Part shown: positions 34,867 to 35,283 of the stretch, piece by piece | Layout of the letters: every line of letters starts with the position of its first letter | Position numbering within the stretch: position 1 is the first letter of the stretch | From: Chthoniobacteraceae bacterium | GTDB lineage: Bacteria > Verrucomicrobiota > Verrucomicrobiia > Chthoniobacterales > Chthoniobacteraceae | Assembly: GCA_031409655.1 (NCBI GenBank) | Contig: JANNXQ010000259.1 | Coordinates: 25,914 to 89,913, forward strand | Direction: 5' to 3' | DNA: 64,000 bases | Notes under the pieces: model-generated | Databases searched by the model: none | What the model was told of the DNA's origin: nothing | Seen by the model: the letters and a program-made list of their open reading frames with translations, nothing else | Made by a program: the position numbers and the translations under genes

Positions 34867-35283
34867 TCAAGCCTCCGCGGAGAAGGCGCCGATGAGGCGC
34901 TCCACGGTCGTCTCAAATTCGCGGTCGTCGCTCATATCGAGCATCAGGCGGGACTTAAGGCGCAGGGAGGGGACGGTGCCATCGCGCAAGATCACGAGCA
35001 GGCGCACGGCGCGTTCTTCGACGCCGCGATGATCCGCCAGGATGTTTTCGAGGTCCGTAAATCCGCTCTCACTGTAAGCCTTCGTATAGACCGCGATGGT
35101 GAAGCGCGACTCGAGCACCCCGCGCTCCATTTCGTCGAGCAAAGCGGCGCCGAGCCGGAAGTCGCGATAATCGACGCAGAGCCGAAGGCCGGCGGCTTCG
35201 AGCCGTGGGACCAGCGTCTTGCGGACCCACTCCTGGTCGGAATGGCGGTAGCTGAGGAAGGCGTCGTAGGGACCTTTGGACAT
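34867..35283 (-). CDS. Standalone TIR domain protein (TLR-like, putative catalytic Glu retained)
   Basis: [40 protein letters not shown]...[28 protein letters not shown]: TIR box1, BB loop and alphaC Glu. Confidence 0.9.
   Translation of the reverse strand: [138 protein letters not shown]

Follow-up and report, generated by a model that had tools for sequence, protein, structure and literature searches.

The 64,000-nucleotide stretch analysed here (the window), from contig JANNXQ010000259.1 of a Chthoniobacteraceae bacterium, carries at positions 34867..35283 of the minus strand a gene for a standalone TIR domain of 138 residues. This small TIR gene is the last of a 7.4 kb cassette of three minus-strand genes, in which a gene for a 506-residue protein is followed by one for an 1830-residue STAND NTPase and then by the small TIR gene; the first two genes overlap by 8 bases and a gap of 9 bases separates the second from the third. 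We see an even chance that the small TIR is an NAD+-cleaving effector triggered by the STAND NTPase, to which it would be recruited by heterotypic TIR-TIR pairing with a second, catalytically dead TIR tethered to the NTPase. Domain content, residue conservation, gene order, co-occurrence and insertion of the cassette are read directly from the sequences, and from these we infer the contacts, the oligomerisation, the catalysis, the trigger and the outcome.

The open reading frame (ORF) of the small TIR starts with ATG and is confirmed as a genuine TIR gene. Its product matches the Pfam family TIR_2 (PF13676) over residues 9-131 with an E-value of 4.2e-20 and 72.9 bits against a cut-off of 28, and the family TIR (PF01582) with an E-value of 1.7e-9 and 38.2 bits against a cut-off of 21.3. 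An AlphaFold2 model based on a 28-sequence alignment (pLDDT 88.2, pTM 0.85) consists of five strands alternating with helices. The protein stands alone, as the initial annotation had stated: two same-strand genes precede it, no second domain was found in its 138 residues and hydropathy gives no hydrophobic segment, so that it is fused neither to a transmembrane (TM) helix nor to a leucine-rich repeat (LRR) ectodomain.

TIR domains of the Toll-like receptor (TLR) type are recognised by box 1, (F/Y)DAF(I/L)SY, by box 2, RDxxPG with the BB-loop proline, and by box 3. The initial annotation had read a TLR-type box 1/box 2 pattern in residues 6-45 with leucine at the proline position, and both points are borne out. 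Box 1 is present as YDAFLSY (residues 6-12), which aligns over FDAFISY of TLR15; box 2 departs from the consensus as RDFRLG (residues 40-45), with Leu44 replacing the proline in all 28 homologues aligned from a word-based search. Compared by sequence with all PDB chains, the small TIR matches TLR15/TLR2 (3.2e-11), TLR1 (4.6e-8), TLR6 (9.1e-8) and TLR2 (4.7e-6), and further Hydra TRR-2 (4e-5) and plant Roq1 (5e-5), whereas the solved bacterial TIRs TcpB, PdTIR, AbTir and BtTir reach E-values of only 0.006-0.044. Foldseek ranked TLR1 first for the model (E 4e-8, TMq 0.78), followed by TLR6, TRR-2, TLR2 and TLR10. The top VIA-align matches are 50 TIR entries with Z from 17.4 to 13.2, among them TRR-2 (17.4), TLR1 (15.9), MyD88 (15.8) and TLR2 (15.6), and the NADase TIRs of SPARTA (14.9), SARM1 (14.4) and AbTir (14.3) are close behind. 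Structure prediction and comparison with SARM1, which had been proposed as checks, thus both return a TIR fold; the TLR-type label is right by sequence, and by fold the protein is a compact generic TIR.

The NADase-type glutamate, said from an alignment by eye of SGFTDLE (residues 73-79) to appear intact, is indeed at the WxxxE position by alignment. The small TIR retains Ser11, Arg13, Phe75 and Glu79, the last two as Phe75-x3-Glu79, and Glu79 (codon 35047-35049) lies within helix 76-85 of the model. The residue-by-residue HMMER alignments place SGFTDLE opposite S-C-W-C-Q-Y-E in TLR15 and opposite S-E-W-C-H-Y-E in TLR1/6; Phe75 is thereby paired with Trp, and Glu79 with the Glu of WxxxE. The phmmer ranges with AbTir show no net insertion or deletion up to Glu79 (query 3-79 on chain 2-78, query 5-79 on chain 43-117), and the VIA-align range 5..135 on AbTir 134..267, an ungapped offset of 129, places Phe75 on W204 and Glu79 on E208. 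With SARM1 the range 5..135 on 561..700, an offset of 556, places Ser11 on S567 and Arg13 on R569. In AbTir W204 and E208 form the WxxxE motif and E208A is inactive, and the TLR4 motif is written WxC747xxE (PMC10641520); the serine S567 of SARM1 is conserved, lies 2.6 Å away from the catalytic Glu and is needed for activity (10.1101/2025.04.09.647920). The TIR of TLR4 has been described as making cyclic ADP-ribose (cADPR) in a Glu-dependent manner (10.64898/2026.04.20.719644).

The word-based search returned 29 proteins at E<=1e-3, 96% to 48% identical and mostly 136-160 residues long; of the 28 aligned rows, 27 have Glu79 and all have Leu44. A pattern scan widened the sample to 78 loci, 14 in one-per-species genomes and 64 in metagenomes; since the pattern contains RDF.LG, residues 37-45 are conserved in these loci by design, and positions 11, 13, 75 and 79 lie outside it. 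The genome loci belong to Cyanobacteria, Chloroflexota, one deltaproteobacterium, one Acidobacteriota and one unclassified bacterium. When the ORFs of the 78 loci were searched with domain pieces from the window and from the loci L007 and L004, 130 TIR-bearing ORFs fell into two groups: an effector clade, which includes the small TIR of the window and whose members stand alone or lie C-terminal to a Peptidase_C14 caspase, and a second clade, in which the TIR is N-terminal to nSTAND1-WD40 or NB-ARC-TPR NTPases.

The pocket residues differ between these groups. Glu79 is found in 35 of 36 caspase-fused TIRs (the other has a gap) and in 31 of 34 standalone TIRs (the others are gaps or truncations), against 9 of 39 STAND-fused TIRs, where G (18), I (5), S (4) and T (3) take its place. 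Arg13 is found in 29/36 caspase-fused and 28/34 standalone members and in none of the 39 STAND-fused ones (S in 24, A in 13), and Ser11 in 36/36, 31/34 and 39/39, respectively. The aromatic position 75 is occupied by Phe, as in the small TIR of the window, in 35 of 36 caspase-fused and 30 of 34 standalone members, and by Trp, as in AbTir and the TLRs, in 29 of 39 STAND-fused TIRs. That Ser, Arg, the aromatic and Glu are kept together in one clade and not in the partner clade argues for catalysis. When 111 TIRs, each of at least 100 residues and no two identical, were placed in a maximum-likelihood tree (19 rows that were shorter or duplicated had been dropped), the two clades separated at a branch with an SH-aLRT of 96. 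The TIR of the 506-residue window protein falls on one side, together with every one of the 37 STAND-fused TIRs and 17 that are lone or fragmentary; the other side has all 29 caspase-TIRs and 27 lone TIRs, the small TIR of the window among them. The tree is unrooted, its alignment columns are few, and the branches leading to both window sequences are long.

The proposed dead partner in the window is the TIR domain at residues 16-135 (41894..42253, minus strand; TIR_2 1.2e-10) of the 506-residue protein, whose gene spans 40778..42298 of the minus strand. This TIR shares 32% identity with the small TIR (E 5e-11) and has Ala19, Cys21, Leu82 and Leu86 opposite Ser11, Arg13, Phe75 and Glu79, so that all four pocket residues are lost. 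Its nearest solved sequences are, at weak E-values, MyD88 (3e-4), TLR15 (1e-3) and MAL (6e-3); LADPLCQLLDNL of the 506-residue protein aligns over LQSKECDFQTKF of MyD88, and MyD88 and MAL likewise lack the Glu. The initial annotation had suggested that the two upstream genes supply the scaffold for activation. Comparative genomics, with TIR-STAND neighbours of the effector clade and the family of the 506-residue protein beside nSTAND1 genes, supports this suggestion, which had nonetheless missed the degenerate TIR on the upstream protein; because that protein carries one, the likely mode of activation shifts to heterotypic TIR-TIR pairing.

To place the pairing in a wider context, effector-clade ORFs matching the small TIR at E<=1e-20 were reduced to 56 by removing those with identical C-terminal 100 residues, and same-strand neighbours within 2.5 kb were recorded. 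A TIR-bearing STAND NTPase is the neighbour in 30 of the 56 (24 caspase-TIRs, 6 standalone), a STAND NTPase with no TIR seen, cut or absent, in 4, only a second TIR in 4 and a WD40 fragment at a contig edge in 3; 15 have no partner. In eleven of these 15 the contig ends within 1.3 kb on one side or both, and the loci L006, L010, L043 and L083 have room on both sides and still no partner. The recurrent theme is a Glu-keeping TIR, bare or with a caspase, beside a STAND protein whose TIR has usually lost the Glu. Two loci (L002, L069) parallel the window, with a TIR-nSTAND1-WD40 gene and then a small TIR gene, and in L004 and L047 patatin, TIR-nSTAND1-WD40, a 181-residue protein and the small TIR follow in succession.

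Caspase(C14)-TIR proteins of about 412 residues lie beside TIR-NB-ARC-TPR or TIR-nSTAND1-WD40 NTPases in L003, L005, L007, L034, L041, L042, L045-L058, L062-L064 and others; the caspase-linked TIR retains the Glu, and the NTPase-linked one has mostly lost it. In L061 and L064 one caspase-TIR is flanked by both kinds of NTPase. With the TIR as the adaptor, such loci follow the logic of effector-associated adaptor domains (EADs). A limited literature search and the text of PMC7159879 and PMC8195603 yielded no description of this pairing. Larger cassettes in L004 (3687-9190), L047, L049 and L053 consist of a patatin-like phospholipase, TIR-nSTAND1-WD40, a conserved protein of 177-181 residues that matches no Pfam family, and lastly either a small TIR or a caspase-TIR; upstream of these genes L004 encodes a TPR-S protein as well. 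At 6316-8232 of L052 and 1686-3602 of L056 a gene for a 638-residue protein with a central TIR (about residues 139-257) separates the caspase-TIR gene from the NB-ARC-TPR gene, whose product is unusually long (1314-1392 residues) and has its TIR from about residue 380-400, after an N-terminal extension.

How the dead TIR of the window would be held on the NTPase is suggested by the rest of the 506-residue protein. Residues 141-506 (40781..41878, minus strand) form an all-helical domain without a name, here called the C-domain; the 366 residues beyond the TIR match no Pfam or PADLOC family. An exhaustive HMMER search of 1.84 billion representatives (50% identity) gave 455 C-domain matches at E<=1e-3, 141 at E<=1e-10 and 4 at E<=1e-30, whereas a word-based search returned only the protein itself and one 79% relative and the ESM Atlas no usable match. 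Positions K205, H208, D209, W279, N321, H384, Q388, W412, D479 and C486 are near-invariant. The AlphaFold2 model (pLDDT 86.8) is made of long helices, for which Foldseek found nothing at E<=1e-3 (best TolC, 0.016, TMq 0.24), and in a wide VIA-align search only residues from about 54 to 192 match designed or chemoreceptor four-helix bundles, at Z 10-14.6, a range common for helical bundles. The C-domain has no convincing solved relative and no Pfam model, and no fold is assigned to it. EACC1 was considered as its identity and rejected, since EACC1 is a single-TM domain (PMC7159879) and the 506-residue protein has no hydrophobic segment by hydropathy.

A Pfam scan of 92 of the 150 listed C-domain matches, a sample that favours head-bearing proteins because the 58 left out are mostly under about 400 residues, found as N-terminal heads TIR_2 in 57, CHAT in 16, EAD7 in 6, DUF4062 in 3 and EAD1 in 2, and EAD10, EAD2, SEFIR, a protein kinase and a ParA-like domain in one each. 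Sixty TIR heads were aligned, and the counts are approximate, the MAFFT alignment being gappy: 26 have W-x3-E and 4 F/Y-x3-E, so that 30 of 60 keep the aromatic-x3-Glu that is lost in the window protein, 4 have W-x3-D, 9 an aromatic with the Glu shifted by one, and the other 17 different residues, including the window protein (L...L) and its 44%-identical relative P0033 (L...M). With the single C-domain sequence no match was found in 300 other genomes of the same phylum or in the 4 genomes behind the small-TIR loci, and one weak match in 301 cyanobacterial genomes; a profile from 18 C-domain-only sequences matched in 2 of the 301 cyanobacterial genomes and, in the phylum to which L002 belongs, in 4 of 251 genomes, with one of these four matches weak (G894, 9e-4).

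In all five of the loci examined (L102, L103, L108, L109, L110) the C-domain gene lies upstream of an nSTAND1 gene, and the N-terminal regions of these nSTAND1 proteins match residues 1-125 of the window NTPase with phmmer E-values from 4e-8 to 8e-12. In L108-L110 the two genes lie side by side or overlap; the heads there are EAD7 or CHAT, and the sensors are FGE-sulfatase or WD40. The co-occurrence of the C-domain and the STAND N-terminal region suggests that they dock, and the C-domain family is probably a docking module missed by current annotation. In the cyanobacterial loci L102 (7449-9677) and L103 (7510-9736) a GAF-GAF histidine kinase is encoded between the C-domain and nSTAND1 genes; L102 has two receiver-domain genes there as well, and in L103 the kinase and C-domain genes each appear to be split into pieces.

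The 1830-residue NTPase (35293..40785, minus strand) begins with this N-terminal region (residues 1-125, 40411..40785), which nSTAND1 NTPases encoded after a C-domain gene have in conserved form; a Pfam search with residues 1-130 gave no family at E<=0.1. The nSTAND1 module follows at residues 132-504 (39274..40392; Pfam 7.3e-58), then a probable single TM helix at residues 552-570 (39076..39132; hydropathy only), two WD40 beta-propeller regions at about residues 700-1400 (36586..38688; WD40 1.5e-57, internal repeats), which are presumed to be the sensor, and a C-terminal helical, weakly TPR-like region at residues 1401-1830 (35296..36585; TPR_2 1.6e-5, TPR_14 2.1e-5, mostly below cut-offs). 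The hydrophobic segment 552-570 (LTTIILLLAGWGGLMWRAG) has a 19-residue Kyte-Doolittle mean of 1.68, with RQRLLLKR just before it; it lies directly after the nSTAND1 module in a positive-inside arrangement. Of 13 other nSTAND1 proteins checked, 7 have a stronger segment (2.1-2.8) at the equivalent place (L002, L004, L069, L076, L108, L109, L110), and none was found in the nSTAND1 proteins of L034, L041, L063, L070, L102 and L103 or in the NB-ARC protein of L007. A real helix here would leave the NTPase and both TIRs in the cytoplasm and put the WD40/TPR part on the outside.

Taken together these data suggest the following sequence of events. The NTPase would act as both sensor and switch, its WD40/TPR part detecting a cue, possibly an extracytoplasmic one should the hydrophobic segment prove to be a TM helix, and would oligomerise once the cue is detected. 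The 506-residue protein would be docked on it, with the helical C-domain bound to the N-terminal region of the NTPase, and its TIR, having lost the pocket, would serve only as a nucleating scaffold. Clustered dead TIRs would then recruit the small TIR by heterotypic TIR-TIR contacts, and the small TIR would assemble into an active NAD+-cleaving form, with NAD+ depletion or an ADP-ribose-derived signal as the outcome.

Several observations weigh against this proposal. The AbTir and SARM1 correspondences come from alignment ranges and offsets, not from printed residue alignments, and the Trp that is called important in AbTir (PMC10641520) is Phe in the small TIR. TLR2 has the Glu, which faces out of the pocket, and was reported to show no NADase activity (10.64898/2026.04.20.719644), and TLR2-type TIRs are among the nearest solved relatives of the small TIR. 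A small TIR is present in none of the five C-domain/nSTAND1 loci examined, and the three-gene arrangement was seen in the window only, so that the small TIR does not belong to the core of that dyad. In addition, 13 of 27 non-identical standalone small TIRs have no detected partner, 11 of them with less than 1.3 kb on at least one side, and 36 of the 70 effector-clade ORFs sit behind a caspase, which fits a pure adaptor role.

TIRs of TLRs and of MyD88 are classically held to act as adaptors or scaffolds. The small TIR could likewise be non-catalytic, extending, bridging or capping an assembly nucleated by the 506-residue protein, with the Glu structural or part of an interface and the killing done elsewhere or absent. 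This is an unlikely reading but the main rival and a serious one, since the case of TLR2, which has the Glu without detectable activity (10.64898/2026.04.20.719644), makes the Glu necessary but not sufficient. The nearest solved relatives are receptor- and adaptor-type animal TIRs, and in half of its occurrences the clade is the C-terminal tag of a caspase beside a TIR-STAND, as the EAD logic would have it (PMC7159879, PMC8195603). The standalone form, however, leaves the TIR as the only effector, as no other recognisable effector was found in the three operon proteins with Pfam and PADLOC, and the joint retention of Ser11, Arg13, the aromatic and Glu while the partner clade drifts is unexpected for two scaffolds.

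Retained catalytic residues would also suit a signal producer of the Thoeris ThsB type, in which the small TIR makes a cyclic ADPR-type messenger for a separate effector, either unlinked or with a pocket of the C-domain as the receptor. The invariant polar residues of the C-domain (K205, H208, D209, N321, H384, Q388, D479, C486) do resemble a binding or active site more than a plain bundle, and TIR-made signals that activate caspase-like proteases have already been published. However, the weak PADLOC match to ThsB1 (1.4e-5) spans just 66 residues (7-72) of generic TIR core, and neither a ThsA-type effector domain (SIR2, SLOG, Macro or TM) nor any other known signal receiver was found in the operon proteins with Pfam and PADLOC, and we regard this alternative as improbable.

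A broader proposal, to which we attach a similarly small probability, is a transmembrane receptor with the logic of Toll: WD40/TPR outside, one TM helix, a cytoplasmic STAND module, a dead MyD88/MAL-like adaptor TIR and a live TLR1/2/6-like TIR. Were it true, a new, helical docking domain would tether the adaptor TIR of the 506-residue protein to the receptor, the TIR/TIR-STAND loci, with or without a caspase, would show bacterial TIR-TIR pairing used as an adaptor code besides catalysis, and among prokaryotes the two bacterial clades would be the closest counterparts of the receptor and adaptor TIRs of animals. A real TM helix would also mean sensing outside the cytoplasm, unusual for STAND immunity.

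The small TIR might instead be a negative regulator or decoy that caps the TIR of the 506-residue protein and blocks spurious assembly until the NTPase fires. Regulatory pairs of inactive and active TIRs are described in TIR-ParA systems (10.64898/2026.10.19.760177) and in plant RRS1/RPS4, but in the window the catalytic residues are on the small partner and lost on the tethered one, and a cap would not need Ser11, Arg13 and Glu79; we judge this very unlikely. A host-mimicking virulence factor like TcpB/TcpC, interfering with eukaryotic TLR signalling, is hardly credible despite the strong similarity to TLR TIRs, as the gene lies inside a STAND operon with translational coupling, hydropathy gives no hydrophobic segment such as a signal peptide, the relatives are in free-living Cyanobacteria, Chloroflexota and Acidobacteriota and in sediment and soil metagenomes, and the DNA itself is in sediment metagenome runs only.

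Returning to the proposed STAND-triggered effector, its genomic setting is that of an accessory element. The cassette lies between purA (33457-34728, downstream) and the divergent pyrF (42514-43248, upstream) with a rhodanese gene; in a genome of the same family (G005, locus L119) purA and pyrF are 161 bases apart, followed by the rhodanese gene, and there is no cassette. The purA side is variable, since two genomes of the same genus carry different genes there (mnmA with a 2456-residue Ig-repeat protein in one, a 1513-residue hybrid histidine kinase in the other). No close homologue of the small TIR was found in 60 relatives: 8 of the 61 genomes, including its own, have a match, and the best match in another genome is 35% identical. 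On the proposed reading the cassette is horizontally inserted and of the conflict type (anti-invader or cell-death), the insertion itself being observed. No direct or inverted repeats flank it, and its GC content (0.66-0.71 against 0.62-0.67 in the flanks) is not distinctive. The genome has nine TIR_2 matches overall, three of them within about 4.3 kb on another contig, C194 (about 17378-21643; loci L025, L029 and L033 in genome G000), in frames of 882, 478 and 574 residues, and this cluster may be a second multi-TIR locus.

The divergent intergenic region between the cassette and pyrF (42299..42513) is the presumed promoter region; no sigma-70-like promoter was found in 34500-43500. In the same interval 9 terminator-like sites were counted (4.4 expected); the junctions of the three genes and the sequence directly behind the small TIR gene contain none. 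No RNA run was found to contain window positions 34700-36200. A minus-strand ORF at 42295-44064 (589 residues) was considered as a fourth operon gene and rejected: it has no Pfam hit, is of low complexity and lies opposite pyrF and the rhodanese gene, and this frame, which overlaps the start of the 506-residue gene, is a high-GC shadow frame. Long shadow ORFs that overlap real genes on the opposite strand, typical of DNA of 65-70% GC, are also numerous in 27000-42000.

Among known systems, AbTir, SARM1, SPARTA TIR-APAZ and ThsB share with the small TIR the fold (Z 14.3-14.9), the Glu at the WxxxE position and the Ser/Arg of beta-A, and by analogy the small TIR would be expected to depend on oligomerisation as these NADase TIRs do. 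By sequence the relation is distant (AbTir E 0.014-0.039, with Phe replacing Trp), and unlike AbTir, SARM1, SPARTA and Thoeris the cassette has no coiled coil, SAM domain, APAZ domain or ThsA partner. The animal TLR1/2/6/10/15 and MyD88/MAL are the nearest solved relatives of the small TIR and of the TIR of the 506-residue protein, respectively, the MyD88 E-value being weak. If the TM helix is real, the cassette also shares the layout of animal TLRs, with a sensor outside, one TM helix and TIR signalling inside; it differs in having no LRR ectodomain, a TIR unfused to the receptor, a leucine in the BB loop and an interposed STAND module, and in having no death domain or kinase downstream. TIR domains are viewed as enzymes in bacteria, plants and SARM1, or as adaptors in the classical animal view. 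The synthesis of cADPR by TLR4 blurs this line (10.64898/2026.04.20.719644), and the window locus with about 50 related loci offers a compact bacterial system in which dead scaffold and live enzyme could be told apart by genetics.

Plant RRS1/RPS4 have a heteromeric pair of TIRs in one receptor complex, as is proposed for the cassette. RRS1 is not known to have the catalytic Glu. Each plant TIR is on its own nucleotide-binding LRR receptor, whereas those of the window are not fused to the NTPase. In published nSTAND1-centred conflict systems the effector or an EAD is fused N-terminally to the NTPase (Kaur et al. eLife 2021, PMC8195603), and by the EAD principle a shared adaptor module couples effector to NTPase (eLife 2020, PMC7159879). 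The cassette resembles the systems of PMC8195603 in its nSTAND1 module, C-terminal repeat sensor, TIR/caspase effectors, patchy distribution and shared-adaptor coupling, and differs in that the N-terminus of its NTPase has no named domain and its TIRs are on separate genes. The text of PMC8195603 and PMC7159879, figures and source data being outside the comparison, was not found to describe the C-domain/nSTAND1 dyad or TIR-TIR coupling.

TIR-ParA (FxsC/FxsT) systems encode a TIR with an intact site and a site-less TIR in one operon, are sometimes built on nSTAND1, AP-ATPase or NACHT modules and include a receptor-like single-TM subtype (10.64898/2026.10.19.760177). The operon proteins of the window have no ParA, CbiA or AAA_31 hit in Pfam and no Fxs model hit in NCBIfam, its inactive TIR is fused to the helical C-domain, and its active TIR is bare and encoded downstream, not upstream. 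The cassette likewise pairs a small TIR carrying S11, R13, F75 and E79 with a site-less TIR carrying A19, C21, L82 and L86 at these positions, and by this analogy the active/inactive TIR pair of the TIR-ParA systems is the nearest published parallel to the cassette.

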